Shown piece by piece: positions 1 to 12,511 of a stretch of 12,511 bases of DNA; position 1 is the stretch's first letter, and each line of letters begins with the position of its first letter. Below the pieces are notes generated by a model. The model was not told where the DNA came from. It saw nothing but the letters and a program-made list of their open reading frames with translations, and searched no databases. The stretch lies in the IMG/VR virus record IMGVR_UViG_2693429508_000013, one strand, 5' to 3'. The position numbers were made by a program, and so were the translations under genes. The DNA comes from a virus (Duplodnaviria; Heunggongvirae; Uroviricota; Caudoviricetes).

Positions 1-182
1 ACACTAAATCAGTAAGTTGGCAGCATCACCCCGCCACAGAACAATTATTGCTTTTGCCGTTGATGACAATAAAGTTTTTATCGCAGGCGTATACCACGGT
101 GGGCAAATCTATGAAACCGATTTTTTATCCAGTGCACCGTAAAACCCCCATCCTTCAGGGCGTGGCGGATATCAAACTTTGG

Positions 183-1265
183 TCATTTTCTCTGGCTGAT
201 CTTTACCGGATAACCATCCCGAAGATCAATTAAGTGCTCCGGTTCAGAAGCAAACCATGCATAAGATCCCCACGCCAATTCTGGTATTGCCTTTTTAAAA
301 GGCAGAGCACTTCTGTCCATAAATGCCGTAAGGAATGCAAGATTTTTCTCGCTGAACCCAGCGTCAATAGCCAAATGAGTGAGAGTAACTTTTCGTTCCC
401 TGTTTATAGGCCCATCTGTCGCAACTACTTCAGTGAAAACTACAAGCATGTCCGAACCCGTTCGGTCCTCTCCCAAATCAATCAAAATAATATCTGGAAG
501 TGCTTTTGAGGCATCAATATTCAGCCCCAATGCTTTTGCCAATACATCATCCTGAGCAACAACTTTATTCCCGGATTCAGACAACCAGAGCACAGTTGGA
601 TTCTTAAGAAAATTAGGAGCAAAAACTTCGATGACGGCCTTAGCTATTGTACTTGACGGGCCCGGAGCTAAAGTTCTCTTCTCTCCATTTGGGAAAGTGA
701 CGACTACGGCATCAGCAGCAATCACTGCCCCTGATTTCAATAAACGCAACCTAGCAAGAGCGGCTTTGTTCAAATGATTTTCTTGCCAGGAACTTATTGC
801 ACTCAGCAGCGAATCTCCTTCAAGCCCGGCATCAAAGAGTGCTGCAAAAGAGCGATTCAAACTGTAACGAGGACGAGAGGATGTGGTGGGTATACCTTTA
901 CGCTCAACAATTGCATTGCAAGGTATTAGGCCATTTTTTATAGTTTCATCACGTATTGGCTCACGCGTATTTTCCGCATACCATGCATCAGCAGGCCTTA
1001 TCTTTTGTTTAGAGAAAGTCATCTTTACCCAGCTTTCTCTGGACGCATCATCAGTAAGAGCAGCCTGCGAATCTCCCATACTTACAACCTGGCTGGGCCT
1101 TATCCATCGCCCCAGCCCCTCAACCGCACCAGCATAAAACATGACAAAAATTGTTTTTGCAGCTATTTCCCGAATTAAATATCCACGATTCTCAGTCCCT
1201 TCAGGGAAAATTAATTGTAATCTTTCCCGGATAACATTCAATGGGGGAACAACAGGCAGATTCAT
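183..1265 (-). CDS. Putative Type II restriction endonuclease, cognate to the upstream methyltransferase
   Basis: 360-aa ORF. Its ATG (1265-1263) overlaps the TGA stop of the methyltransferase gene (ATGA overlap on the minus strand), so M then R sit in one coupled operon. No methyltransferase motifs. The nuclease call rests on gene context and AT-rich cargo-like composition, not on a recognised catalytic motif. Confidence 0.55.
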   Translation of the reverse strand: MNLPVVPPLNVIRERLQLIFPEGTENRGYLIREIAAKTIFVMFYAGAVEGLGRWIRPSQVVSMGDSQAALTDDASRESWVKMTFSKQKIRPADAWYAENTREPIRDETIKNGLIPCNAIVERKGIPTTSSRPRYSLNRSFAALFDAGLEGDSLLSAISSWQENHLNKAALARLRLLKSGAVIAADAVVVTFPNGEKRTLAPGPSSTIAKAVIEVFAPNFLKNPTVLWLSESGNKVVAQDDVLAKALGLNIDASKALPDIILIDLGEDRTGSDMLVVFTEVVATDGPINRERKVTLTHLAIDAGFSEKNLAFLTAFMDRSALPFKKAIPELAWGSYAWFASEPEHLIDLRDGYPVKISQRK

Positions 1266-3094
1266 GCAATCATCACTCCATAGAAACCAGCGATAGTTCT
1301 CTCAATAATCCGTCTGTGGACGCCAGCATCAATTAACGATTGAATCTCCATCACCTGCTCCAGAGAAGGCAACGGGATTGAATTCAATTCATAGGCCGAA
1401 ACAGCAACACTTCCGCTTATACACCTGAACGCCCGATCGACAACATGCGAATTAAGTAGCATATCAATAACATCAGGGCGAACCGCAGAGAACAATCCGT
1501 TTGAATATACAATATTAATATGGTTTTCAACTACTACGCCACCAGTTTCATCTATAAATCCCTGAGGTAAAATTGCCGCTAAAATCCTTCTGTCCTGTTC
1601 CTTCGATGTTGTCCGCTGAACAAGCACACATTCAGATTTTGTCACAAGGAAACCCTGTTGTGGGGTTATATCGATATAGGGAACATGATTTTTTCTGTCT
1701 GCACTAAAACGAAAACCAGCTGAAGTTATTGATTCCGCCCAGACTAATGGGTAGCTATTTTTTCCTTTCGTCGTACGCAACTGCGACTTAAATCGATTCC
1801 AGACTAACTGACCTGTAGAGACTGAGTATCCCAGATCAGCTAAACGCGTAGACATCTGTTTTAATACATTAAGAAAACAGGCATCATCTTTAACGCGTGG
1901 CAAAAGCCACGTTGCTCCACCTTTTTCTATATCAACATTACCTATTTTCTCAATTTTTGCTTTGTTCAACCCCTTAGGGACAAGTGAGGATACCTGGGCC
2001 CGAACTTTATGTTCTCCCGCCTTGAATGCTGTCAACATTGTTTCCTGGAGAACATCGTCAAAGACCCCATCCCTGTCAGTGACGAAATCAAGGGCATACG
2101 GAGTAGTTTTTTCGGTCAAAAGGGTTCGCAGCGCGGTGAAATACTGCCCACCAAGAAAAGAAGTTGGCGTAAGAAATGCAATAACTCCTGTTTTCTCTTT
2201 AACCATGCGAACAGCTAAGTCGGTGAACAATCCATATAGATTTGCATGACCAAATAACGAACGAGAATATTTTTCTCTCGTTTTAATATCGAGAGTGACA
2301 CGTCCGTAAGGCGGATTCCCTACCACAAGATCATAACCAGAAAATTTATCTTGCTGAAGCGCATCAGCAACAATAATTGTATCTTCAGGCAATCTACGTT
2401 TTACCTTTACACATAGTGGCATTAGTACAGATTCGAGCAATACCAAACTCATCCAAGCCGCAAATGGATCGATTTCTATCCCCTTTAAACGACGACTGAT
2501 TCTCCTCAACATCCATTCAGGGGAAGACCCCTTGTCTTTTTTTAACATTCGAATGGCTACTGGTGCCAAAAATGCACCGCCACCACACGCAGGATCAATA
2601 ACCGATGCATGAGAAAAATCAACACCAGACTTTTCAGCCAGGTCCAAGAGACGCGCTACCAAAGGTGGGGGGGTATAGTAAGCCCCCAATTCCGAACGGT
2701 AAGCGGATGGCAGCATTACCGTATAAATTGACCCAATCAGATATCCAGCGTCCTCCGCCGGAAATTGAGCAATAAGCTCACCTGTTCGTTCAGCGAGCTC
2801 GCGTGCATCACATGGAATGTCTTCTATGTAAACAGTGTGCGGTACTGCCCTCATTTTAATGCTGCTTTTTTGCTTTTTTGCAAGGGTATCCCAATATGCA
2901 GCTACGATGCTGAAGCAGTATGAGCGGGCATGCATCAACCTTGACTGCCCGGTTTTGTAATTGCCCGCATAACCTTTGGCCATGGCTTTACAAGTTTGAT
3001 ATCTTTCCAGATTAGAAAACTCATTATCTGTAAAAAAATCAAAATGTTGCACATTCATAATGTAAAATCCTAATGTATCAAACATGCGGGCCAT
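1262..3094 (-). CDS. N6-adenine DNA methyltransferase, gamma class (Eco57I-like amino-MTase fold)
   Basis: 610-aa ORF with motif X (YYTPPPLV), motif I SAM-binding (VIDPACGGGAFL) and motif IV catalytic (DLVVGNPPYG) in the gamma-class order X-I-IV. The long C-terminal half is consistent with a target-recognition domain. ATG at 3094-3092. Confidence 0.88.
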   Translation of the reverse strand: MARMFDTLGFYIMNVQHFDFFTDNEFSNLERYQTCKAMAKGYAGNYKTGQSRLMHARSYCFSIVAAYWDTLAKKQKSSIKMRAVPHTVYIEDIPCDARELAERTGELIAQFPAEDAGYLIGSIYTVMLPSAYRSELGAYYTPPPLVARLLDLAEKSGVDFSHASVIDPACGGGAFLAPVAIRMLKKDKGSSPEWMLRRISRRLKGIEIDPFAAWMSLVLLESVLMPLCVKVKRRLPEDTIIVADALQQDKFSGYDLVVGNPPYGRVTLDIKTREKYSRSLFGHANLYGLFTDLAVRMVKEKTGVIAFLTPTSFLGGQYFTALRTLLTEKTTPYALDFVTDRDGVFDDVLQETMLTAFKAGEHKVRAQVSSLVPKGLNKAKIEKIGNVDIEKGGATWLLPRVKDDACFLNVLKQMSTRLADLGYSVSTGQLVWNRFKSQLRTTKGKNSYPLVWAESITSAGFRFSADRKNHVPYIDITPQQGFLVTKSECVLVQRTTSKEQDRRILAAILPQGFIDETGGVVVENHINIVYSNGLFSAVRPDVIDMLLNSHVVDRAFRCISGSVAVSAYELNSIPLPSLEQVMEIQSLIDAGVHRRIIERTIAGFYGVMIA

Positions 3095-3153
3095 AACATC
3101 TCATGGTGGCGCATAGCAAACTGGCCCGAAGAATATCACGCACCAAGTCGATC

Positions 3154-3169
3154 TCATAACCCGTTATGA
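3154..3169. promoter_or_regulatory. Perfect inverted repeat TCATAAC-CC-GTTATGA in the R-M upstream region
   Basis: 7-bp arms with a 2-bp spacer, about 60-75 bp upstream of the methyltransferase start codon in the 3095-3308 intergenic region. Candidate operator; no binding protein identified. Confidence 0.3.
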
Positions 3170-3308
3170 CAATAAATCTTTGTAGCTGAACTCACTTGGT
3201 GATTTGTCAATCATTCCTGGCCTCCAGTTCGTCCTGAATCTCTTTATCGAGTTCACCGTATTTGTTAGTCCTCATCACTCACGACTTGACTTCCAGAAAT
3301 AACCTTGA

Positions 3309-3665
3309 TTATTCGGGGCTATATTTTGTCACCCTGCGTATCCGCGCTTTCGCATTACGCTCAATCTGGATTAGCTTTTCTATATTTTTTCGCCTTTCCC
3401 GCTCCTCCTGGCGCAAGAGCCTTACATCATCTGCCAGTCTGGTTTCTCTTTTCGCCACAGAGAGCATCCAGTCAAATGGCTCCACAACTGCACCGCAAAT
3501 TTTACAGCGGACCTGACGCTCTTTTTCGTCAACCCGGACAGAAGCGTGATGGCAATATGGTCTTTCCGATGGCTCATAAAGAAAATTAACCTGATTACGA
3601 GGGTTATCCTCTTTTACCGGAAATAAAACAATATTGCTTAACTCATCTTCTGGTTTTATTTCCAT
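3309..3665 (-). CDS. Hypothetical phage protein with a possible zinc-binding motif
   Basis: ATG at 3665-3663 preceded by a strong SD (AAGGAGAGGAG); the longer ORF in the track begins at a GTG at 3722. 118 aa, MEIKPEDEL..., containing C-H-H ... C-x2-C (PYCHH ... CKICG). Same strand as and immediately downstream of the replication genes. Confidence 0.6.
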   Translation of the reverse strand: MEIKPEDELSNIVLFPVKEDNPRNQVNFLYEPSERPYCHHASVRVDEKERQVRCKICGAVVEPFDWMLSVAKRETRLADDVRLLRQEERERRKNIEKLIQIERNAKARIRRVTKYSPE

Positions 3666-3722
3666 GCTCCTCTCCTTTGATGCGAATGCCAGCGGTAATT
3701 GAAGCCTGATAGCTAATTTCAC

Positions 3723-4145
3723 TCACAGTACCGCCTCCTGAAAATCACCCTGATAGAAAGCCGGTACACGCTGCATAACTTCACTCTTCCGGCACTCGCG
3801 ACAGATTATGTTCTGATGTCTGTCGTAGCGGCGTATTTCTCCGTCTGGTAATGACCAGATAAGGTCAGGATCAACCACAGATGGTTTCTTCAGATTTGCC
3901 CTTGAGAGTTTTTTGCGGGCGTTTTGCCAGTCCTTACGAGCCTGTTCAGACGGGAATAACCCGTAGCCAGAGTTGTATACATCCCCACTGGCAACCAGCT
4001 CTCTGGCGAGAACGCTTATTAAATATCTTGTCGCCCCGGTTTTAGCTTCCAGTTGTCGTAACGTCTCGCGCCCACTCTGGCGTACGAGTTCAACAACCTG
4101 CCCCTTAATTTTTTCCCGCTCTTCCTGTGTAAATACTTTTGCCAT
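3723..4145 (-). CDS. Hypothetical phage protein
   Basis: ATG at 4145-4143 (MAKVFTQEE...); the track ORF starts at a TTG at 4160. 140 aa, basic, with a C-terminal CxxC (ICRECRK). Start lies 15 nt downstream of the upstream gene stop (coupled). Confidence 0.6.
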   Translation of the reverse strand: MAKVFTQEEREKIKGQVVELVRQSGRETLRQLEAKTGATRYLISVLARELVASGDVYNSGYGLFPSEQARKDWQNARKKLSRANLKKPSVVDPDLIWSLPDGEIRRYDRHQNIICRECRKSEVMQRVPAFYQGDFQEAVL

Positions 4146-4160
4146 AAGCGCCCCCGGCAA

Positions 4161-4886
4161 TCACTTTTCCGACACAATACGACCGGAGGAATCGACAATC
4201 TGTCGAACAATATCCCGGTGCTTGTTCAGCTCCCGCAACGCGGCGCAGACACGCTCCCACTTCTGGACATGACTTTTCGCCCGACGCAGTTCGCGGTTTG
4301 CCATATGCAGCGATGGTAAAACCAGGTCATCCGCTTGCGTTTCGGTGAACGATGGCAACGACTGCACAATGTCCGCCACAGTTTCTGTTTTAATTTCTTC
4401 CTGTGTTGCAGCTTCCTGTACCGGTAACGCAACACCTGCTGGCTGAGGAAAGACTTTACCATCCGTTTCCGCTATGGATGCGGCTTTCGGCTCTGCCGGT
4501 AAATCAGCGCCCGGTATGCAGTACCGAAATTTACCGCCCTGATTCACGCGAATCAGACGCCCTTTGCTGATTGCCATGGCCAGCGATGAATTCGCCCGGC
4601 GGGAGGTAATCCCGAACATCAGTGCCAGCTCATCCGCCGTTTGTGGGCCATGTTGTTCAATCGCCTCAGTCAGCATTTGCGCTGTCACTTTCGGTACCGG
4701 TGACACTGGTTCACTTTCACCAGCCTGAATCAGCCACCACATCGAACCCTTGTTATCCGCTTCACCACGGCGCTTCAGTTTCCACAGTTCGTTGACCGCA
4801 TCTTCACGGCTGATTCCAAGGCGGGACGCCACCACATGTGAAGAGGCTCTTTTCAGTGCTTTCAGTGCGTCAAATACAGTTTCCAT
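4161..4886 (-). CDS. Hypothetical phage protein with two winged-helix-like segments
   Basis: ATG at 4886-4884 with SD GGAGGA 6 nt upstream (minus strand); the track ORF starts at a TTG at 4904. 241 aa. N-terminal [26 protein letters not shown] and a second [31 protein letters not shown] segment resemble HTH/winged-helix units. Starts 22 nt after the DnaC-like stop. Confidence 0.65.
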
Positions 4887-4907
4887 TAAAACATCCTCCA
4901 ACAAAAA

Positions 4908-5654
4908 TTACTTCACAACTCCCGGAAAGCTGACATTTGAACGCCAGCTATCCCAGTTAAACGTCACCCACCGACAACCGTTCATGGTCATGCGGTCCAT
5001 AATCCTCTCACCAAGAAGCGTGCTCATTGCGGCATGATTCAGGTTTGTTAACATCCCGACACTGCACAGTGATGCTGTCCGGCGATCAATTATCTGGTGC
5101 AATACCACCTGCTCGTTTTTCGTCTCCCGCTGAATGCCTATTTCATCCAGGACCAGCAAATCAACCCCGCAAAGCTCCTGTAAAAATTTTTCACCGGATT
5201 TGCCGTTGTCGTAGCTGTCATGCAACACGCTCATGACATCAGACACGGTGACGATAATCACGCTGCGCCCCTTCGCCATCAGCCAGTTACCCATCGCCGC
5301 TGCAAGGTGATTTTTCCCGGTGCCGGTTTTACCGCTGAACACAAAATTCGTGCACCCGGTCATCAGTTCGTCAGCTATGGATTTGGCCTGGCTCAGCGCG
5401 TATTTTTGCCCGTCGTTCTGCACCTGATAATTCGCAAACGAGCATTTGCTGTGCAGAGGCTGGATGCCCGAACGATTCAGGATTTTTTCCACCCGCAACT
5501 GGCGATTCTGGCGGTTAATCTCCTCGCTGCGTTTTCGTCCTTCAGCAAGTTGCCATTCCCGCCACTCCTCCACCGTCCGGTACGGTGGAACCGCCCCCTG
5601 TGGTGCAAGTCTGTGAATACGTTCAAGAACCCCGGCTGCCGCAATGTTTTTCAT
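4908..5654 (-). CDS. DnaC-like replicative helicase loader (AAA+ ATPase)
   Basis: 248 aa with Walker A (FSGKTGTGKNHLA) and Walker B (DLLVLDEIG). ATG 5654-5652 lies 6 nt after the TGA of the upstream O-like gene (coupling). Confidence 0.9.
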   Translation of the reverse strand: MKNIAAAGVLERIHRLAPQGAVPPYRTVEEWREWQLAEGRKRSEEINRQNRQLRVEKILNRSGIQPLHSKCSFANYQVQNDGQKYALSQAKSIADELMTGCTNFVFSGKTGTGKNHLAAAMGNWLMAKGRSVIIVTVSDVMSVLHDSYDNGKSGEKFLQELCGVDLLVLDEIGIQRETKNEQVVLHQIIDRRTASLCSVGMLTNLNHAAMSTLLGERIMDRMTMNGCRWVTFNWDSWRSNVSFPGVVK

Positions 5655-5660
5655 GCCACA

Positions 5661-6725
5661 TCACCCCCTGAATCCCGGCGGAATTTCGGTATCCGGTTCA
5701 GAAATATGATTCACACAACGCTGGTTGTTCGTGCCGCTTACCGGGAGCAACCAGGGGTTTTCAAAATTCCGGTCCGGCCCAAAAAACGTCGTCGCTCGCT
5801 GAACAAATTCCGTTCCCGCTTTCCCGGTCGCCGCCAGGTATCTCGCGTAACGCCTCACACCATCCAGCATGGTCTCTGGTGGCACCCCCTCGCGCAATCT
5901 GGCCTTCCAGGCACTGAATGCGGATTTCTTCGGGTTTGCCCCGGCACGCAACGGGTATTCCCGCCAGACCTGTTCGAACACATCCGGATAATCCACTCGT
6001 CCCACAGGCTGCCCGGTGTTTTCCGGGGCTACCCGATCGGCTTCCCGCTGAATGGCGGAATCGGCTTCAGGCTGCTGCAGTTGGAGTGATTGCTCCGGCC
6101 TTGCGGTCATCACCTGCTGCACAGCGCCCGAATCGGCTTTCAGCGCATACGCTGAATCGGCTTCCGGTGTCGAGCCTGCTGGCTGACCAGGATTGACGGT
6201 CTGAACATCCCCTGCCTGGTTCGTGGCGTTTTTTACGCCATGGACCATAGTGTTTTGATCTTCTTTATCTGTATCTTTATCTGTATCTGTCGTGACTCGT
6301 CGTGACATGTGCGTGACATTTCGTGACGCGCCGTGACAATCGCCATTTTGTTCCCGCTTTCTTTCCCTCTCTCGCTGCGCCCTCTTGCGCTCTGCAGGAG
6401 ATTTTGCGGTTTGCGAAATATTGCCGTTGTCCTCTTTAAGCACCTGGCGTTTTTCCCATCCAGTGATTAAATCACCATCAAGTACCCGCCCCTGCATCGT
6501 CTGCAAAATTGAATCAATTACCTCTTCTGTCACGTCGAGCGCACTTGCCAAATCTTCTGTCGTGACATCAATGTGACCTCGCGTGACATTTCGTGACGCG
6601 CTCACCAGGAGGTGGATATACACTGCCATCACTGTTGCAATTGGCTGCCCTGACACCCTGGCAATTGTTCGCCACTTAGGGTCATTTGGCATGTCATGCC
6701 ATAATCTGAGCCAGGCGTTAGCCAT
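5661..6725 (-). CDS. Phage replisome organizer / replication initiator (lambda O-like)
   Basis: ATG at 6725-6723 (MANAWLRLWHDMPNDPKW...), SD-like AAGAGG just upstream; the track ORF starts at a GTG at 6731. The N-terminal domain resembles phage replisome-organizer N-terminal domains. The central region is low-complexity, T/D/K-rich, and is encoded by the iteron DNA. Directly upstream of the DnaC-like loader. Confidence 0.8.
   Translation of the reverse strand: MANAWLRLWHDMPNDPKWRTIARVSGQPIATVMAVYIHLLVSASRNVTRGHIDVTTEDLASALDVTEEVIDSILQTMQGRVLDGDLITGWEKRQVLKEDNGNISQTAKSPAERKRAQRERERKREQNGDCHGASRNVTHMSRRVTTDTDKDTDKEDQNTMVHGVKNATNQAGDVQTVNPGQPAGSTPEADSAYALKADSGAVQQVMTARPEQSLQLQQPEADSAIQREADRVAPENTGQPVGRVDYPDVFEQVWREYPLRAGANPKKSAFSAWKARLREGVPPETMLDGVRRYARYLAATGKAGTEFVQRATTFFGPDRNFENPWLLPVSGTNNQRCVNHISEPDTEIPPGFRG
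6263..6337. repeat. Iteron cluster 1 plus adjacent AT-rich direct repeat (candidate origin) inside the O-like gene
   Basis: 12-bp direct repeat CTTTATCTGTAT x2 (6263-6286), followed by five CGTGAC hexamers at 6291, 6301, 6312, 6322, 6332 (10-11 bp spacing, one helical turn). Includes the 20-mer GCGTGACATTTCGTGACGCG at 6311-6330. Confidence 0.65.
6529..6600. repeat. Iteron cluster 2 inside the O-like gene
   Basis: CGTGAC at 6561, 6582, 6592, TGTGAC at 6572, and an inverted copy GTCACG at 6529-6534. An exact second copy of GCGTGACATTTCGTGACGCG at 6581-6600, 270 bp from the first. Confidence 0.6.
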
Positions 6726-6796
6726 ACTCACCTCTTCTGATACCGAATCTTTTTACTCACGAGTTGCCGGGAGCGATTCGATATGGCTATTGTCAG

Positions 6797-7222
6797 TCAA
6801 TGTACTGCCACAGCATTTCCTGCCGGGCCACCACGGTTCATCTGATTGAAACCGGCGATTGCCACTGCGACAAAATCATCAGCGTCTCTCACCAGTCGTT
6901 CATGCGTCTCCACCAGTTCCCGAAAATAAGCTGAACTGTGGCTGCGCATTCGAGCCACCAGCGGAGGTGGCATTGCCCTTTCGATCGCAGGTAACAACGC
7001 CTGAATTTTTTCAACAGCGTCAGGGGTGTCTTTATCCAGCCAACGGAAAATCTTTTGGGTGTTGAGATAAAGCGTGTTGTGCTTGCTGTCGTTATGCAGA
7101 ACCGGAAACGTCATTCCCAGTTCGAAATAAACCCTGGTTATTTCAGCTGCCGGAACTTTTTCACCGTCCGGATGCGCCCAGGCTTTCATCGCCATGCGGA
7201 TGTGTTCATGCTTGATTTTCAT
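6797..7222 (-). CDS. ydaT: YdaT-like protein (CII-like regulator family of Rac-type prophages)
   Basis: 141 aa, MKIKHEHIRMAMKAWAHPDGEKVPAAEI...; recognised from memory as YdaT-like. Its ATG overlaps the TGA of the upstream Cro-like gene (ATGA at 7219-7222). Confidence 0.75.
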   Translation of the reverse strand: MKIKHEHIRMAMKAWAHPDGEKVPAAEITRVYFELGMTFPVLHNDSKHNTLYLNTQKIFRWLDKDTPDAVEKIQALLPAIERAMPPPLVARMRSHSSAYFRELVETHERLVRDADDFVAVAIAGFNQMNRGGPAGNAVAVH

Positions 7223-7482
7223 GAATCAACCCCCGCCGATGGTTGTGTGTTAGCCTGAAACTCAGCAGGCAAGCCGTCAGTTGGGTTGGGGTAGGTTTTA
7301 CTGTCAATCTCATGTGGGGTCACCACCCATCCCGTTGCTTCACACCAACGTAATATTTTTTCTCCTGTAAGTTTTGCACGCCCCGTTATAACGTGGCTGA
7401 CCATCCCTTGGGATGCGCCAACAATCTCAGCAAATGAACTCTGGGTTATATGAAAATGATGCAAATATTCTCCAAGATTCAT
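7219..7482 (-). CDS. ydaS: YdaS-like Cro-type HTH protein
   Basis: ATG at 7482-7480 (MNLGEYLHHFHITQSSFAEIVGASQGMVSHVITGRAKLTGEKILRW...); the track ORF starts at a TTG at 7509. 87 aa, single HTH. Divergent from the repressor gene across an operator-bearing intergenic region. Confidence 0.75.
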   Translation of the reverse strand: MNLGEYLHHFHITQSSFAEIVGASQGMVSHVITGRAKLTGEKILRWCEATGWVVTPHEIDSKTYPNPTDGLPAEFQANTQPSAGVDS

Positions 7483-7517
7483 AATCCGCCCTATGTGATG
7501 TGTTACCAATGCATAAT

Positions 7518-7559
7518 TAATAGCACTGTTATTTTTAAAAGTAAATAGTGATGCTATTT
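7518..7559. promoter_or_regulatory. OR-like operator pair in the divergent promoter region
   Basis: Two 17-bp palindromic sites separated by 8 bp: TAATAG-CACTG-TTATTT (7518-7534) and AAATAG-TGATG-CTATTT (7543-7559, perfect 6-5-6 palindrome). They lie between the divergent Cro-like and repressor starts. Confidence 0.55.
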
Positions 7560-7593
7560 CAAAGTGATTAGCAATCTTATTAGAATTGGATGT

Positions 7594-8094
7594 ATGAAAA
7601 GAAAATCATTGTCAGACACCGACCTCAACGCCGCCAGAAGACTGAAAGAAATCTGGATGGCAAAGAAATCTCAGTTGGGATTGACTCAGGAACGTGCGGC
7701 GGAAATTATGGGGTTTTCAACACAAGGGGCGGTAAGTCACTACCTAAATGGTCAAACCCCACTAAACCTTGAGGCTGTTCTAAAGTTTGCTGGCTTACTG
7801 AAAGTTCCCCCTGAGTCAATCAGGCCAGACATGGTAGATTTGCTGCAAATTGCAAGGATGTATTGTCGAGAACCACAGCAAGATAACATAGTCGCATTAC
7901 CAGCAGACACAGAACAAACAGAGGATGAACTACCGTTTGCCGTAGAGCCGATGGAACGAGATTTAATCCATACGTTCAGAGCTTTTCCGAAAGAAGATCA
8001 AGAACACATGCTTCAGGAGATGAAAGATAAAAAAGAATCAATGGATCGTACGGTTGCGCGGTGGTTAGCTGCACAAAAAGGCCGTCGCGCCTAA
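7594..8094 (+). CDS. Phage repressor-like HTH regulator without a peptidase S24 domain (PaaR-like)
   Basis: ATG at 7594 (MKRKSLSDTDLNAARRLKEIWMAKKSQLGLTQERAAEIMGFSTQGAVSHYLNG...); the track ORF starts at a GTG at 7564. cI/434-type N-terminal HTH, acidic C-terminus, no Ala-Gly/Ser-Lys LexA-like features. First gene of a three-gene unit ending in parE. Confidence 0.75.
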   Translation: MKRKSLSDTDLNAARRLKEIWMAKKSQLGLTQERAAEIMGFSTQGAVSHYLNGQTPLNLEAVLKFAGLLKVPPESIRPDMVDLLQIARMYCREPQQDNIVALPADTEQTEDELPFAVEPMERDLIHTFRAFPKEDQEHMLQEMKDKKESMDRTVARWLAAQKGRRA

Positions 8095-8113
8095 ATCAGA
8101 GGAGATATGTAAA

Positions 8114-8308
8114 ATGAGTACAGTCCTTTCCCCAATGGTTTCAGAATTTGAGACAGTTGAGCAAGAAAATAGTTACAACGAATGGCTGCGGGCCAAAGTA
8201 GCAGCAAGCCTCGCGGATCCCCGCCCGGCGATTCCGCATGATGAGGTAATGGCGGAAATGGAACAAATTATTGCCCAAATTGCTGCTGCAACTCACAGAG
8301 GTGAATAA
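8114..8308 (+). CDS. paaA: PaaA2-like antitoxin, partner of ParE
   Basis: 64 aa, MSTVLSPMVSEFETVEQENSYNEWLRAKVAASLADPRPAIPHDEV...; SD GAGGAG 9 nt upstream. Stop overlaps the parE start (TAATG). Confidence 0.7.
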   Translation: MSTVLSPMVSEFETVEQENSYNEWLRAKVAASLADPRPAIPHDEVMAEMEQIIAQIAAATHRGE

Positions 8309-8598
8309 TGTTACCCGTTTTATGGCTACCATCTGCTCGTGATGATTTGCGCCAGATCGTAGCCTACATAGCTAAAGAAAATCCCGCGGCAGCACGCAGA
8401 ATGAAAATTCGAATTGAAACATCCGTTTTGCCGCTCACAGAGCATCCTTACCTGTATCCTCCAAGCGAGCGAGTTCTTGGTCTTCGTGAAATTGTAACTC
8501 ATCCTAACTACATCATCCTTTACCGAGTAACAGCATCAAGCATAGAAGTAGTAAATATTGTGCATTCTCGAAGACAGTATCCAGGCAAAAACAGTTAA
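8308..8598 (+). CDS. parE: ParE/RelE-family toxin
   Basis: 96 aa, MLPVLWLPSARDDLRQIVAYIAKENPAAARRMKIRIETSV... HPNYIILYRV...; typical ParE length and conserved segments. Translationally coupled to the antitoxin. Confidence 0.85.
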   Translation: MLPVLWLPSARDDLRQIVAYIAKENPAAARRMKIRIETSVLPLTEHPYLYPPSERVLGLREIVTHPNYIILYRVTASSIEVVNIVHSRRQYPGKNS

Positions 8599-8614
8599 TT
8601 ATTCCCGCCGACAG

Positions 8615-8637
8615 AACCACCTTAGGGTGGTTTTTTC
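8615..8637 (+). terminator. Rho-independent terminator after parE
   Basis: Stem AACCACC / GGTGGTT with loop TTAG (8615-8632), followed by a T-run (to 8636). Confidence 0.6.
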
Positions 8638-8652
8638 TTGCCCCAACAAAAA

Positions 8653-8694
8653 CAATAGCGATGCTATTTACATCAAAAAATAATGATGCTATTG
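8653..8694. promoter_or_regulatory. OL-like operator pair upstream of the rightward dicB-type operon
   Basis: Two 17-bp sites separated by 8 bp: CAATAG-CGATG-CTATTT (8653-8669) and AAATAA-TGATG-CTATTG (8678-8694). Same half-site consensus and spacing as the 7518-7559 pair. Embedded in a larger inverted symmetry AACAATAGC ... GCTATTGTT (8651-8696). Confidence 0.55.
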
Positions 8695-8875
8695 TTTCAG
8701 GCGTCAACCCACCCCGCCCCACAGAATGCAGGGCAATACTTCGAGTTACCAGACAGTGGTCAGGGGTTAAGTAGCCAGCCCGAGGCGTAAGAACATGACG
8801 GCAGGGTTCAATCTTTAACTATGCAGCAGGTTTTTTGTTCCGCCACCCCGGCGTTAAGGGGAAATGAGGTCAGCA

Positions 8876-9027
8876 TGGATACTATCGATCTTGGCAACAA
8901 CGAATCTCTGGTGTGCGGCGTGTTCCCTAACCAGGATGGAACGTTTACCGCCATGACGTATACCAAAAGCAAAACGTTTAAAACCGAATCTGGCGCGCGT
9001 TGCTGGTTAGCCAGAAACACTGACTGA
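8876..9027 (+). CDS. Small hypothetical protein (YdfA-like by position and size)
   Basis: ATG at 8876 with SD GAGG 6 nt upstream. 50 aa, MDTIDLGNNESLVCGVFPNQDGTFTAMTYTKSKTFK.... First gene after the OL-like operators. A longer start at 8821 lacks an SD. Confidence 0.5.
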
Positions 9028-9038
9028 TGAGGCTGACG

Positions 9039-9404
9039 ATGGAATTTAAAGATTTACCGTCTGATGTACAGAAAACAGCAGCTCATACATTGCATTCTGT
9101 GCTGCGAGAAATCGGGAAAGATATTGCAAGCGAGCCAGCAAAAGATCTGGCCCGGAAAATCAAGACCGCTTTCGTTGAGCTTTATAATGTTGGCACTGAC
9201 TCTGAAACTGTCGAGACCAAGACCGTAAGTTCACCAATATTCTCACTTGAGCCAAGCGTATTATCAGGTGAAATATGCACCGAGATTTCCAGCGAACTGC
9301 TTCCGGTAATACGAGAAGCAATTCGCCGTCGCGGTTTGGATGGAAGTTATGATCATGACGTTCTGCAAGTTCTCAGGACAATGGTGACTTCACTGGGGAT
9401 TTGA
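9039..9404 (+). CDS. Hypothetical phage protein
   Basis: ATG at 9039 (MEFKDLPSDVQKTAAHTLHSVLREIGKD...) with SD GAGG upstream. 121 aa. Confidence 0.55.
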   Translation: MEFKDLPSDVQKTAAHTLHSVLREIGKDIASEPAKDLARKIKTAFVELYNVGTDSETVETKTVSSPIFSLEPSVLSGEICTEISSELLPVIREAIRRRGLDGSYDHDVLQVLRTMVTSLGI

Positions 9405-9573
9405 TCCCTGCGTCCTCTAAGCTTTTGATATAGCGGTCCTCCAAGAAGCGGTAAATTTTGTCGAAATCATCTTTTCCCTCTGGTTTATTCAGAGGATTAC
9501 AGGACCCGTAAGTAGCGGCATACATTTCAACCGTTTTATCAAAAATATAAGAGACAAATTCTTCTTTAGTCAT
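9373..9573 (-). CDS. Small hypothetical protein
   Basis: ATG at 9573-9571 with a good SD (AAGGAAA) upstream on the minus strand. 66 aa, MTKEEFVSYIFDKTVEMYAATYGSCNPLNKPEGKDDFDKIYRFLEDRYIK.... Convergent with the 9039..9404 gene and overlapping it by 32 bp. Confidence 0.45.
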   Translation of the reverse strand: MTKEEFVSYIFDKTVEMYAATYGSCNPLNKPEGKDDFDKIYRFLEDRYIKSLEDAGIKSPVKSPLS

Positions 9574-9758
9574 ATAGATTTCCTTCTTGGTTATTCGGGA
9601 TAAGAAGGATACCACCTCGCCTGACGTGGTTAAAAGCAGGCACACAACGCGAAATGACGCGGCGGTAAGTATGGCGGAGTTATTCCTTCCCCGTTGAGGA
9701 CACCGGGTTGTCAGGTTGACCATACGCTTAAGTGACAACCACGCCACAACACTCCATG

Positions 9759-9814
9759 TTGATTGGTACCTTTGGCGGCATCAGTTTCATTGCTGGCTGA
9801 TGTCCGCCCTTTTT
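9759..9814 (+). ncRNA. dicF: DicF-like sRNA with terminator hairpin
   Basis: TTGATTGGTACCTTTGGCGGCATCAGTTTCATTGCTGGCTGATGTCCGCCCTTTTT. The core TTTGGCGG.ATCAGTTT and the GC-stem plus T-run 3' end match my recollection of E. coli DicF; the 5' dozen bases differ. Hairpin GGCGGCATCAG (9774-9784) / CTGATGTCCGCC (9797-9808), then TTTTT (9810-9814). Sits upstream of dicB as in Qin. Confidence 0.5.
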
Positions 9815-10301
9815 AAAGTGAATTTTGTGATGCGGTGAATGCGGCTCAGCGCACGCGGCACAGTTAAAAAGCGATTAGTTCCCCCGTATCGGGTGGTTAT
9901 GGGTTTCCCTGTATCCGGCGTTAATTGTTAACTGGTTAACGTCACCTGGAGGCACCAGGCACCGCATCAACAAAGTTCACTTCGGTGATGAAAGGAAAGA
10001 GAAAATGTTGAATGTAGCTATTGAAAACCAGAACGGGTGGAATTATAGTGCACCTGCACCTTATAAAACGGGTGCCGGGCGTGGAAACCCGAACGTTACT
10101 CGAGCGCATAGCCGCGCTGAAGCGGTTTTTTTATGCGTAATGCACAGCTCCATTCAAATTATGGTGGGATGTGCAGGGCAGTCGCAAGACTGGCCGGGTT
10201 CTCGAGTGACCGGTATTTCCACCCCTGTACGTCTCACCACCCTTATGGTCGTGGAAAACCTCGGTGGTGAGTTAATTAACTTATCACTCGAGGATGCCAT
10301 C

Positions 10302-10859
10302 ATGGCTACTATCCCTGCCCTTTCTCACCCTGACGTAACCATCGAAAATGGTCGCGCTGTCACTACGTCTATTGCGATCGCAGAGTTCTTTGGCAAGCGT
10401 CACGACAATGTGTTACGTGCCATCGCAAATACTGAATGCTCACCTGAATTTAACGCCCTCAATTTTGAGGACGTCACCTACACTGACGCCAAAGGCGAAA
10501 AACGCCCGATGTACCAAATCACCAAAAACGGCTTCGTTTTCCTGGTGATGGGATTCACTGGCAAAAAAGCCGCTGCATTTAAAGAAGCCTACATTGCTGA
10601 GTTCGATCGCATGGAGGCCGAACTGCGCCAGAATAACACCCCACCCACTGACAAAATAATTCCAGGCGATGGCCGCACCCTGGTTGTTCACTTCGACGAA
10701 CGCGGCAACATCAGATTCACCGAAACCGTTCCTGATGGCGCACGGGTCTGTACCATGGAGACTTTCCGGTTTTATCTGGAAGAACAGGGATGGACTCTTG
10801 TTAACCGGGGCGCAATTAAAAATATGACTGTAGAGCAATTACTCAAAATTCATTGTTGA
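10302..10859 (+). CDS. rha: Rha-family phage regulatory protein
   Basis: ATG at 10302 with SD AGGA 7 nt upstream. 185 aa, MATIPALSHPDVTIENGRAVTTSIAIAEFFGKRHDNVLRAIAN ... YQITKNGFVFLVMGFTGKKAAAFKEAYIAEFDRME, i.e. a Rha N-terminal domain signature. An in-frame upstream ATG at 10005 would add 99 non-Rha-like residues. Confidence 0.8.
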   Translation: MATIPALSHPDVTIENGRAVTTSIAIAEFFGKRHDNVLRAIANTECSPEFNALNFEDVTYTDAKGEKRPMYQITKNGFVFLVMGFTGKKAAAFKEAYIAEFDRMEAELRQNNTPPTDKIIPGDGRTLVVHFDERGNIRFTETVPDGARVCTMETFRFYLEEQGWTLVNRGAIKNMTVEQLLKIHC

Positions 10860-10869
10860 GGACGCGATA

Positions 10870-11058
10870 ATGGAAACGTTATTACCAAACGTTAATACGA
10901 CTGAAGGTTGTTTTGAAATTGGTGTCACTATCAGTAACCCTGTATTTACTGAAGATGCCATTAACAAGAGAAAACACGAACGGGAGTCATTAAATAAAAT
11001 ATGCATTGTTTCAATGCTGGCTCGTTTGCGTCTGATGCAAAAAGGATGCTGGCGATGA
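10870..11058 (+). CDS. dicB: DicB-like cell-division inhibitor (copy 1)
   Basis: 62 aa, METLLPNVNTTEGCFEIGVTISNPVFTEDAINKRKHERESLNKICIVSMLARLRLMQKGCWR; SD GAGGA 7 nt upstream. Recognised from memory as DicB (62 aa in K-12 Qin). Confidence 0.8.
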   Translation: METLLPNVNTTEGCFEIGVTISNPVFTEDAINKRKHERESLNKICIVSMLARLRLMQKGCWR

Positions 11059-11246
11059 ATACAGCATTTGCACTCGTTCTGACCGTTATTCTTAATACGG
11101 GCGAACCAGCTGAACTGGTTACCGGAGTATACAACTCCATGAAAGAATGCGTGGCTGCTGCAGCTGAACAGAAAATTCCCGGTAACTGTTATCCGGTTGA
11201 TAAAATCATTCACCAGGATAATAAAGAAGTCCCGGCAGGTCTTTAA
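11055..11246 (+). CDS. ydfD: YdfD-like small membrane/lysis protein (copy 1)
   Basis: ATG at 11055 overlaps the dicB stop (ATGA), SD AAAGGA 8 nt upstream. 63 aa, MNTAFALVLTVILNTGEPAELVTGVY..., hydrophobic N-terminus. Same size and position as YdfD of Qin. Confidence 0.7.
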   Translation: MNTAFALVLTVILNTGEPAELVTGVYNSMKECVAAAAEQKIPGNCYPVDKIIHQDNKEVPAGL

Positions 11247-11334
11247 AGCAGCCACGTAATAAATATCCGGTTTCATTTTTATATGCCAGCAATGGCAGGG
11301 ATTTGTTCACCCTTAAATCTGTAATGAGGTTAAA

Positions 11335-11604
11335 TACATTGCTGAGTTCGACCGCATGGAGGCCGAACTGCGCCAGAATAACACCCCACCTGCTGACAAG
11401 ATGATTCCGGGTGATGGTCGCACTCTGGTTGTTCACTTCGACAAATTCGGCAATGTCGAATTCACCGAAACCGTTCCTGATGGCGCACTGGTCTGTACCC
11501 TGGAGACTTTCCGGTTTTATCTGGAAAAACAGGGATGGACTCTTGTTAACCGGGGCGCAATTAAAAATATGACTGTGGAACAATTACTCAAAATTCATTG
11601 TTGA
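11335..11604 (+). pseudogene. Truncated rha copy (3' portion only) created by the tandem duplication
   Basis: Homology to rha begins mid-gene at the duplication junction. The rha frame opens just after a TAA at 11314-11316; the first ATG (11356) has no SD. Encodes only the C-terminal 82 residues (MEAELRQNNTPPADKMIPGDGRTLVVHFD...). Confidence 0.65.
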
Positions 11605-11614
11605 GGACGCAATA

Positions 11615-11803
11615 ATGGAGACGTTATTACCAAACGTTAATACGTCTGAAGGTTGTTTTGAAATTGGTGTCACTATCAGTAACCCTGTATTTACTGAAGA
11701 TGCCATTAACAAGAGAAAACACGAACGGGAGCTATTAAATAAAATATGCATTGTTTCAATGCTGGCTCGTTTACGTCTGATGCCAAAAGGATGTGCACAA
11801 TGA
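11615..11803 (+). CDS. dicB: DicB-like cell-division inhibitor (copy 2)
   Basis: 62 aa, METLLPNVNTSEGCFEIGVTISNPVFTEDAINKRKHERELLNKICIVSMLARLRLMPKGCAQ. Differs from copy 1 at 5 of 62 residues, mostly at the C-terminus. Confidence 0.8.
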   Translation: METLLPNVNTSEGCFEIGVTISNPVFTEDAINKRKHERELLNKICIVSMLARLRLMPKGCAQ

Positions 11804-11991
11804 ATACAGTATTTGCACTCGTTCTGACGGTTTTTCTTGTTTCCGGTGAACCGGTTGACATGGTTACTGGCGTATACAGCTCAATGAAAGAATGTATGAC
11901 TGCCGCAGCGAAACAGAAAATTCCCGGTGACTGTTATCCGGTCGATAAAGTTATTCACCATGATAATAACGAAATCCCGGCAGGTCTTTAA
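11800..11991 (+). CDS. ydfD: YdfD-like small membrane/lysis protein (copy 2)
   Basis: ATG at 11800 overlaps the dicB copy-2 stop (ATGA). 63 aa, MNTVFALVLTVFLVSGEPVDMVTGVY.... Differs from copy 1 at 16 of 63 residues. Confidence 0.7.
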   Translation: MNTVFALVLTVFLVSGEPVDMVTGVYSSMKECMTAAAKQKIPGDCYPVDKVIHHDNNEIPAGL

Positions 11992-12075
11992 AACAGTTCC
12001 GTAATAAATATCCGGTTTCATTCTTATATGCCAGCAATGGCAGGGGTTCGCTCAACCTTAATTAAGGAGAAAAAC

Positions 12076-12351
12076 ATGATTACCAGTTATGAAGCCACTG
12101 TTGTAACTACTGATGACATTGTTCACGAGGTTAATCTGGAAGGAAAGCGTATTGGCTACGTGATTAAGACAGAAAATAAAGAAACCCCATTCACTGTGGT
12201 TGATATCGACGGTCCATCAGGCAACGTTAAAACACTTAACGATGGTGTAAAAAAAATGTGTCTGGTGCACATAGGAAAGAATCTGCCCGCAGAAAAAAAA
12301 GCCGAATTTCTGGCAACTCTGATTGCAATGAAATTAAAAGGTGAAATCTGA
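12076..12351 (+). CDS. Hypothetical phage protein
   Basis: ATG at 12076 with strong SD AAGGAG 6 nt upstream. 91 aa, MITSYEATVVTTDDIVHEVNLEGKRIGYVIKTENKETPFTVVDIDGPSGNVK.... The longer ORF in the track starts inside the duplication and is not supported. Confidence 0.6.
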   Translation: MITSYEATVVTTDDIVHEVNLEGKRIGYVIKTENKETPFTVVDIDGPSGNVKTLNDGVKKMCLVHIGKNLPAEKKAEFLATLIAMKLKGEI

Positions 12352-12381
12352 AAAAAAGAAAGCCTGCACACTGTGCAGGCC
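12351..12381 (-). terminator. Hairpin with flanking A/T run, canonical as a minus-strand intrinsic terminator
   Basis: Stem GCCTGCACA / TGTGCAGGC (12362-12380), preceded on the plus strand by AAAAAAAGAAA. Read on the minus strand this is a hairpin followed by a U-run. In plus orientation there is no downstream T-run. Confidence 0.45.
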
Positions 12382-12511
12382 TGAGTGAAGAACCTGGGAC
12401 ATTTATTCATCACTCGCAGTAATTTTAATCTGAGTTGAGGTTAAAAAACAATGAGCACCGATAAACAAGTTTACCCACTGTATGAGGTAGCCTGAGTTTA
12501 ACGGACACTCC

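Follow-up and report, generated by a model that had tools for sequence, protein, structure and literature searches.

Genes and features of the locus

The window, the whole 12,511-nt stretch of DNA that was analysed, derives from a defective (decayed) lambda-like prophage of Shigella sonnei. It carries a methyltransferase gene, M, followed by a restriction endonuclease gene, R, and the coordinates of both are collected in Table 1 with those of the associated features. An earlier note on this DNA had described two open reading frames here without giving their strand; both are present on the minus strand (1262..3094 and 183..1265), as is the ATGA stop/start overlap that it had reported.

Table 1 Features of the M-R cassette (positions in the window)
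Feature	Position	Strand	Evidence
40-nt spacer from the R stop to the convergent parE remnant; downstream edge of the cassette	143..182		Sequence
R gene, BsuBI/PstI/SdaI-family type II restriction endonuclease, 360 aa	183..1265	-	Pfam, PADLOC, SdaI match, conserved residues, selection
ATGA overlap of M stop and R start (translational coupling)	1262..1265	-	Sequence; related junctions
M gene, gamma-class N6-adenine DNA methyltransferase, 598 aa	1262..3058	-	Motifs, Pfam and PADLOC matches, homologue length, fold
12-codon in-frame extension of the 610-aa call, probably untranslated	3059..3094	-	Homologue length; indels in Kluyvera, Klebsiella and Salmonella copies
Conserved non-coding block 2 (5' leader, CACCATGAGATGTTATGGCCCGCATGTTTGATACATTAGGATTT), with the M ribosome-binding site	3065..3108	-	Identity among copies
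Conserved non-coding block 1 (CGGGTTATGAGATCGACTTGGTGCGTGATATTCTT)	3129..3163	-	Identity among copies
Candidate extended -10 promoter element, TGATATTCT	3130-3138	-	Lies in block 1; conservation of TGnTATTCT
Perfect palindrome TCATAAC-GG-GTTATGA, upstream edge of the cassette	3154..3169	-	Sequence

M and R are separate adjacent genes, as in type II (IIP-like) restriction-modification (R-M) systems. Of 80 species-representative related loci, 76 have M followed by R, and 47 of 75 related junctions overlap by 4 nt or 1 nt. The 598-aa M and 360-aa R proteins belong to a separate large clade (180 proteins at E <= 1e-30 in a search of 50%-identity cluster representatives). Purifying selection on both genes is strong, with dN/dS of about 0.05 (0.045-0.07, dS > 1).

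The methyltransferase

The longest reading frame of M encodes 610 aa from an ATG start. This frame exists as the earlier note had stated, but translation most likely starts at the ATG at 3058 to give 598 aa, because nearly all homologues are of this length and because indels of 1-3 nt between the two ATGs shift the upstream one out of frame in the Kluyvera, Klebsiella and Salmonella copies. A Shine-Dalgarno sequence, AGGA, is found at 3068-3071, 9 nt ahead of the ATG at 3058.

The gamma-class motifs that had been read from the sequence are all there and in gamma order: motif X (AYYTPPP, aa 126), motif I (DPACGGGAF, FxGxG-like, aa 155) and motif IV (NPPYG, aa 248), with the target-recognition domain C-terminal to them. 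In the 610-aa numbering YYTP, DPACGGGAF and NPPYG are at aa 139, 167 and 260. The expected Eco57I and N6_Mtase Pfam matches were obtained (1.7e-13 and 2.1e-9), and the PADLOC type II methyltransferase model matched M over its full length (1.8e-300). An AF2 model (pLDDT 81, pTM 0.80) had as its best folds CamA, M.BseCI, M.TaqI and the methyltransferase part of MmeI. M is a monomeric-type gamma-class N6-adenine methyltransferase.

The endonuclease

The second reading frame, which starts with ATG, has no methyltransferase motifs, in line with the first description of it, and the restriction-endonuclease fold that had been predicted for its product was found. Comparison with Pfam gave BsuBI_PstI_RE (PF06616, catalytic; 9.3e-45) and BsuBI_PstI_RE_N (PF17728, N-terminal helix-turn-helix; 1.2e-30), with bit scores of 152.2 and 106.6 against gathering cutoffs of 27 in each case and with each profile covered almost entirely. 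R matches both domains of PstI and BsuBI end to end, in a comparison made with the family profiles. The PADLOC type II endonuclease model also matched R at full length (2.8e-128). Among solved structures the sole significant match was SdaI (PDB 2IXS), by sequence (1.8e-16) and by fold (E = 1.3e-13), although the AF2 model of R is of moderate quality (pLDDT 74.5, TM 0.39-0.44 to SdaI).

As a result of the Pfam, NCBIfam, PADLOC and SdaI matches, the endonuclease assignment is now based on homology and goes beyond genomic context. R is a two-domain enzyme in which a winged-helix DNA-binding domain (aa ~10-172) is followed by a PD-(D/E)XK-variant nuclease (aa ~188-349). The suggestion in the earlier note that the 360-aa protein might be an effector of another, non-restriction kind accompanying the methyltransferase found no support; R carries full-length BsuBI/PstI domains, and it showed no confident homology to a non-nuclease family. 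This alternative is now extremely improbable.

SdaI aligns with R over aa 96-349 at 21% identity, and the two share the two-domain layout, the P-D...E motif and an N-domain helix, (S/T)RExx(F/I)R. In R the motif is formed by P257-D258 (codons at 492-497) and E279 (429-431), and among 57 diverse homologues the active-site residues P257, D258, D263, E279 and R291 show at least 88-98% conservation. The SdaI residue K251 is replaced by alanine (A282) in R, which could be taken to mean that the nuclease is dead and that M acts as a solitary epigenetic or anti-restriction methyltransferase; orphan methyltransferases are common on phages. The alanine is not a defect, however, since alanine is usual here in the family, lysine is found at this position in none of the 57 homologues, and R.EcoGIII, which has threonine there, is reported to be biochemically active (PMC3893438). 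The R reading frame is also intact, its PD...E residues are conserved, and with dN/dS of 0.05-0.07 (range 0.04-0.09) it is as constrained as M. Loss of R activity is therefore very unlikely.

The upstream region and expression

The earlier note had taken the cassette to extend over 183-3308. Both genes do lie in this interval, but positions 3095-3308 are non-coding and only the promoter-proximal ~105-160 nt belong to the cassette. M, R and ~105 nt of upstream sequence are conserved as one unit, and the conservation of the non-coding part is far above that of synonymous sites. Block 1 is 100% identical to the Citrobacter copy and matches the Kluyvera copy at 33 of 35 positions, whereas synonymous sites in the same comparisons are about 55-58% identical (dS > 1). 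Block 2 does not differ between the S. sonnei, Citrobacter and Klebsiella copies and has a single change in Kluyvera. Taken together, the upstream blocks are 95-100% conserved, against ~55% at synonymous sites.

The TGnTATTCT sequence in block 1 is present in all six lambdoid-borne copies, including a 70%-identical Enterobacter copy, and its conservation suggests that it may act as a promoter. A strict sigma-70 promoter scan of 3059-3308 called no site, this element included. A leader peptide (MRCYGPHV) and a hairpin were both considered for block 2 and rejected, as each is lost in the Salmonella and Enterobacter copies. An operator function for the 16-bp palindrome at the upstream edge was likewise rejected; the Citrobacter and Salmonella copies do not conserve its left arm, and for this reason it probably marks a recombination joint. 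No Rfam match was found within the cassette.

C-protein-controlled R-M systems such as PvuII and Esp1396I face the same problem as the present one, that M must be made before R in a new host, but they have a C gene and the present pair lacks one. The coding strand of 3059-3308 has no reading frame of 50 aa or more, the next gene upstream of M is phage backbone, and the genes on either side belong to the phage backbone or are parE, so that the small helix-turn-helix controller gene of such systems is lacking. Control presumably relies on translational coupling together with the conserved leader.

M and R are co-oriented with the phage early-right operon (cro-O-P-like genes), and no terminator was predicted between the Zn-ribbon gene and M. 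With the outcome of the promoter scan, this would be consistent with expression only from the early-right transcript after induction, the pair being silent in the lysogen and serving to mark progeny DNA and/or to attack host or competitor DNA. Such a role is improbable: the non-coding block with TGnTATTCT moves with the cassette across unrelated backbones and is conserved far beyond synonymous sites, and the pair is still intact in S. sonnei, where the prophage is defective.

Prophage context

The cassette has 43.5% GC (GC3 36-37%), compared with 51.9% for 3309-7222 (GC3 50-62%). It is thus more AT-rich than the replication block, as had been noticed, but within the early region taken as a whole its GC content does not stand out, because the rest of the window (7223-12511) has 45% GC. 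Homology to other E. coli prophages ends at 3305-3323.

The M-R pair lies in a prophage in all ten enterobacterial contexts examined. Eight genera are represented (Shigella, Escherichia, Kluyvera, Citrobacter, Klebsiella, Salmonella, Enterobacter and Serratia), the carriers being lambdoid or P2-like prophages, and two slots are used: the lambdoid one between the replication genes and RusA/DUF968/Q, and the gpA-portal defence hotspot of P2, where the Serratia copies are exactly between gpA and the portal gene. The P2 gpA-portal (gpA-gpQ) locus is a known hotspot of anti-phage systems (PMC9122126). The lambdoid slot is variable, and other prophages have genes such as Hok/Gef and DUF7167 there.

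The proposal that the pair is accessory cargo in a nin-type slot is supported by these comparisons, as near-identical or related cassettes occupy the same slot of different lambdoid prophages while other, otherwise syntenic prophages hold different cargo there, and the cassette is found on several unrelated backbones. Prophage hotspots of this kind (P2 gpA-gpQ and lambdoid nin-region morons) are known to carry R-M systems, and there is nothing unusual in this respect here. R-M as prophage cargo is well documented, with EcoGIII in Stx phages and the P2 and P4 hotspots as examples. Prophages of Enterobacterales carry the present clade repeatedly, in two phage architectures.

Comparison with characterised systems and the recognition site

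EcoGIII is a PstI-like R-M system of Stx2-converting phages that methylates and cuts CTGCAG. It resembles the M-R pair in being prophage-borne in Escherichia/Shigella, in its M-then-R order with a 4-nt overlap, in its BsuBI/PstI-family endonuclease and in its gamma-class N6-adenine methyltransferase, the catalytic and recognition domains of which are homologous to those of M. The proteins differ in length, M having 598 aa with ~100 extra N-terminal residues (M.EcoGIII, 489 aa) and R 360 aa (R.EcoGIII, 317 aa), and EcoGIII adjoins cI in the immunity region while the present pair follows the replication genes. Restriction of lambda-like phages and changes in host transcription have been reported for EcoGIII (PMC6602927; PMC3893438).

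That the cassette is itself EcoGIII was considered and rejected: both proteins are only 26% identical to their EcoGIII counterparts, so that the high identity and the place beside cI expected of an orthologue are both lacking; a megablast search of 50,697 phage records gave no match; and among 5426 complete E. coli genomes just 2 carry the cassette. SdaI, the other characterised relative, recognises an 8-bp site, CCTGCAGG, and is not known to be phage-borne. The characterised enzymes (EcoGIII at CTGCAG, SdaI at CCTGCAGG) share just 21-28% identity with the present proteins.

The most likely recognition site of the M-R pair is CTGCAG or a relative with a TGCA core, for which the chances are a little short of even. 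Flanking DNA of 80 carrier genomes, 1.05 Mb in all, was analysed for palindrome avoidance and gave no site-specific signal: CTGCAG was mid-rank (O/E 0.82) and the most avoided palindromes were CTCGAG and CAGCTG, which are generic words. The 12.5-kb window has too few sites for their counts to be meaningful. In the literature searched, no published methylome, biochemistry or enzyme name was found for the clade. Xanthomonas phaseoli ATCC 49119 has one family member on a plasmid, and XphI, from X. phaseoli, is a PstI isoschizomer. If the plasmid encodes XphI, CTGCAG would be favoured for the clade.

Host distribution and role of the system

At least 1000 contigs with the name S. sonnei or Shigella encode the exact M and R proteins, and a PADLOC survey of 994 S. 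sonnei genomes has reported 982 type II R-M systems (PMC13293514). Nearly every S. sonnei genome appears to have this pair as its type II R-M system. Knowledge of its site would aid genetic manipulation of this species and the interpretation of gene flow and, if the pair does form a species-wide barrier, it could shape the acquisition of plasmids and phages.

M and R very probably constitute an orthodox type II R-M operon, which belongs to the PstI/BsuBI/SdaI family and is accessory ('moron') cargo of a defective S. sonnei lambdoid prophage. By analogy with the family, M would use S-adenosylmethionine to methylate one adenine per strand of a short palindromic site and a dimer of R would cut the unmethylated site with Mg2+. 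Translational coupling and a promoter within the cassette (candidate TGaTATTCT) may ensure that M is made before or with R in the absence of a C-protein. In the lysogen the system would then cut incoming unmodified phage or plasmid DNA, and as a side effect loss of the prophage segment would be expected to be lethal (post-segregational killing).

This side effect could instead be the selected one, the pair acting mainly as an addiction module that keeps a decaying prophage segment in place, with defence secondary. Both genes are intact and sequence-identical on the S. sonnei contigs while neighbouring prophage genes have been broken by IS elements (parE, 31-142; recE, 12452-12483), and toxin-antitoxin modules adjoin the pair (ParDE in the E. 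coli copies, PaaA2-ParE in the window). Addiction is nevertheless compatible with defence, the cassette occupies known anti-phage hotspots and S. sonnei is a young clone in which intactness may reflect recent acquisition. As the main function, addiction is possible but rather doubtful.

Under the orthodox R-M reading, the unusually conserved leader would offer a simple model for the safe establishment of a cassette that has no C-protein. A more far-reaching combination can be put forward only tentatively, and is on balance unlikely to hold in all its parts: that the clade, at ~26% identity to characterised enzymes, has a site other than CTGCAG or CCTGCAGG, that the ~105-nt leader serves as a C-protein-independent timer setting M before R on prophage entry, and that the system forms a species-wide barrier in S. 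sonnei. The RefSeq and PADLOC names for M and R are already correct, and the system is an ordinary one.

Results and discussion

The N6-adenine methyltransferase gene M and the endonuclease gene R of the window belong to the PstI/BsuBI/SdaI family of type II restriction-modification (R-M) systems. Both BsuBI/PstI domains of Pfam were matched by R (PF06616, 9.3e-45; PF17728, 1.2e-30), each profile being covered essentially whole, and the PADLOC type II endonuclease model also matched it (2.8e-128). SdaI (2IXS) was the sole solved structure matching R, both by sequence (1.8e-16) and by fold (E = 1.3e-13, the next E being 0.09). The structure model of R was moderate (pLDDT 74.5), and its TM-score against SdaI was low owing to a different orientation of the two domains. 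The restriction-endonuclease fold that an earlier note had expected for R was therefore found.

The same note had predicted an Eco57I-like N6_Mtase for M, and this agrees with the Pfam matches (Eco57I, 1.7e-13; N6_Mtase, 2.1e-9); the PADLOC type II methyltransferase model matched end to end (1.8e-300). The best solved relative by sequence was M.TaqI. An AlphaFold2 model (pLDDT 81, pTM 0.80) was superposed on CamA, M.BseCI, M.TaqI and the methyltransferase part of MmeI, each a gamma-class adenine methyltransferase whose recognition domain is C-terminal. The YYTP, DPACGGGAF and NPPYG motifs reported previously are all present (AYYTPPP at aa 138-144, DPACGGGAF at aa 167 and NPPYG at aa 260, in 610-aa numbering), and their order, X - I - IV, is on sequence grounds that of gamma-class N6-adenine methyltransferases. 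Both genes are already named correctly in RefSeq and both are detected by PADLOC; the finding is thus an ordinary one, and the earlier observation of an R-M cassette, with its interpretation as prophage cargo, was right.

The coordinates of the two ORFs were also correct, as was the ATGA at 1262-1265 that ends M and starts R, but the length of 610 aa for M is almost certainly too long. Nearly all M homologues are 598 aa long and small indels between ATG 3094 and ATG 3058 break the longer frame in the Kluyvera, Klebsiella and Salmonella copies, so the real start is almost certainly 3058, which is preceded by AGGA at 3068-3071. The AT-richness claimed for the cassette (M, R and the upstream leader) applies against the replication genes only, because the rest of the window has a similar composition.

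Features of the window and their base composition
Feature	Position	Strand	Remarks
Multi-copy element end	1-30	+	
parE remnant	31-142	+	last ~37 codons
R ORF	183-1265	-	360 aa, long ORF
M ORF	1262-3094	-	610 aa, long ORF
Block 2	3065-3108		conserved, non-coding
Block 1	3129-3163		conserved, non-coding
Candidate extended -10 element TGATATTCT	3130-3138		within block 1
Mini-ORF MIDKSPSEFSYKDLLS	3164-3214	-	16 codons
Cro-like gene	7219-7509	-	
HTH repressor gene	7564-8094	+	divergent
PaaA2 antitoxin	8114-8308	+	Pfam 3e-23; directly after HTH repressor-like gene
ParE toxin	8308-8598	+	1.8e-17; follows PaaA2
isrK RNA	10056-10132	+	Rfam, 61 bits, above gathering score
C4 antisense RNA	10157-10244	+	Rfam, 77 bits, above gathering score
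recE start codon	12452	+	interrupted after 32 nt
Second multi-copy element end TGAGGTAGCCTGAGTTTAACGGACACTCC	12484-12511		
Cassette			GC 43.5%; GC3 36-37%
Replication block	3309-7222		GC 51.9%; GC3 50-62%
Rest of window			GC 45%; GC3 of two genes measured, 40% and 51%

The possibility that R is a decayed nuclease was considered. An alignment of R with 57 full-length homologues of diverse origin showed 88-98% conservation at P257, D258, D263, E279, G285 and R291. Lys251 of SdaI aligns with Ala282 of R, which might be taken for a defect; this was rejected, as none of the 57 homologues has lysine at this position and R.EcoGIII, from the PstI-like system of Stx2-converting phages, has threonine there and is reported to be biochemically active (PMC3893438). 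By this alignment, the motif lacking lysine is the family's variant of PD-(D/E)XK. Comparison with the Kluyvera, Citrobacter, Klebsiella and Salmonella copies gave dS > 1 and dN/dS of 0.045-0.07 for both genes; R is as strongly constrained as M, which argues against decay.

The pair also persists as a unit. R lies directly downstream of M, on the same strand, in 76 of 80 species-representative genomes encoding an M relative, two of the four exceptions being contig ends, and 47 of 75 M-R junctions are 4-nt or 1-nt overlaps. At two of the 80 loci, L049 (Pseudomonas pudica) and L089 (a Spirochaetia MAG), no R was detectable within 7 kb of the M relative; these methyltransferases may be orphans of M's clade.

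The pair is analogous to EcoGIII. An orthologous relationship was rejected since the two differ in clade, protein sizes and prophage position, M-R following the replication genes whereas EcoGIII lies beside cI. CTGCAG is the site of EcoGIII, PstI and BsuBI, the characterised relatives of R, and SdaI recognises CCTGCAGG. Identity of the characterised relatives to R is only 21-28%, and that of M.EcoGIII to M is 26%. An (S/T)RExx(F/I)R helix of the N-terminal domain, with R101, E102 and R105 invariant across R's clade, is common to SdaI, EcoGIII and R and fits a core recognition shared by all three; the residue that follows is D106 in R versus R or K in SdaI and EcoGIII. No palindrome avoidance signal was seen in 1.05 Mb around 80 carrier loci, and no methylome assignment was found in the literature. 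CTGCAG or a TGCA-core relative is put forward as the site tentatively, at slightly less than even chances.

No C-protein gene was found: in the 250 nt upstream of M there is no ORF of ≥ 50 aa, and the flanking genes belong to the phage backbone. Among lambdoid-borne copies shared homology starts at ~3163, and blocks 1 and 2 are 95-100% identical in copies whose identity at synonymous sites is no more than about 55-58%; the blocks are therefore likely to be under selection for a non-coding function. TGATATTCT would fit an extended -10 promoter, its TGnTATTCT form being kept even in a 70%-identical Enterobacter copy; a strict two-hexamer promoter scan made no call there. A mini-ORF and a hairpin in block 2, and a palindrome at 3154-3169, were rejected as conserved elements, none of the three being kept across the compared copies. 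Just upstream of the leader, the MIDKSPSEFSYKDLLS mini-ORF has a strong GGAGG Shine-Dalgarno; it is shorter in the Kluyvera copy, absent from the Citrobacter and Salmonella copies and likely a remnant at a recombination joint. No terminator was found separating M from the phage genes, so that during induction M-R is likely also to be read through from the early-right promoter.

The proposal that the cassette is accessory cargo in a lambdoid slot was supported by the end of homology to thousands of other E. coli prophages at 3305-3323 and by different cargo elsewhere, one other E. coli prophage filling the slot with DUF7167, small ORFs and Hok/Gef. The cassette was absent from the phage collection searched and nearly identical (99.3-99.9%) in only 2 of 5426 complete E. 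coli genomes, both with the order Zn-ribbon gene, cassette, convergent ParDE pair and DUF968-RusA-Q. In lambdoid prophages of Kluyvera, Citrobacter, Klebsiella, Salmonella and Enterobacter the same slot holds copies of 70-89% protein identity. P2/186-like prophages of Serratia marcescens and S. fonticola carry the pair between gpA and the portal gene, at the defence hotspot that Rousset et al. described (PMC9122126). Each of the ten enterobacterial contexts examined was a prophage.

In related prophages further cargo adjoins the pair: RecA-like and LexA-like genes in Citrobacter sedlakii (L011/L012, 9451-10560), a C5 DNA methyltransferase in Enterobacter (L104, 10122-11780) and, close to Q in E. 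coli VL7S7, a second DNA methyltransferase (L004, 3829-4887).

At least 1000 contigs that bear the name Shigella sonnei or Shigella, complete chromosomes included, carry the exact M and R sequences. For 994 S. sonnei genomes, a 2026 survey recorded 982 PADLOC type II R-M systems and remarked on how uniform these were (PMC13293514); this fits M-R being the standard type II system of S. sonnei, although the survey itself does not identify the pair.

Apart from M and R, the window is a lambdoid early region. Its gene order runs from the repressor and Cro-like genes through YdaT, a replisome organiser, a DnaC-like ATPase, DUF1627, DUF977 and the Zn-ribbon gene to M and R. The first 30 nt of the window are the end of a multi-copy element, with a median of 10 places per E. 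coli genome and a maximum of 68; we take this end to be the IS1 terminal inverted repeat. It truncates the ParE toxin gene of a ParD-ParE pair that is intact in the two E. coli copies. At the other end recE (exodeoxyribonuclease VIII) is interrupted by TGAGGTAGCCTGAGTTTAACGGACACTCC, which occurs at up to 43 places per genome, adjoins a transposase pseudogene on plasmid pRM9872-1 and is probably of the IS3 family. Such bounding by IS ends is typical of a Shigella short-read contig. Because these ends cut parE and recE, the prophage is defective, with M and R intact.

E. coli O157 prophages carry a three-component PaaR2-PaaA2-ParE2 module, which the layout at 7564-8598 resembles, and the 'cI-like' HTH gene may regulate the PaaA2-ParE module rather than being the prophage repressor. 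Both isrK and C4 lie inside the 5' part of an Ash/Rha-family ORF (10005-10859), and this stretch resembles an antisense immunity element of the P1/P7 type within a lambdoid early-left region.
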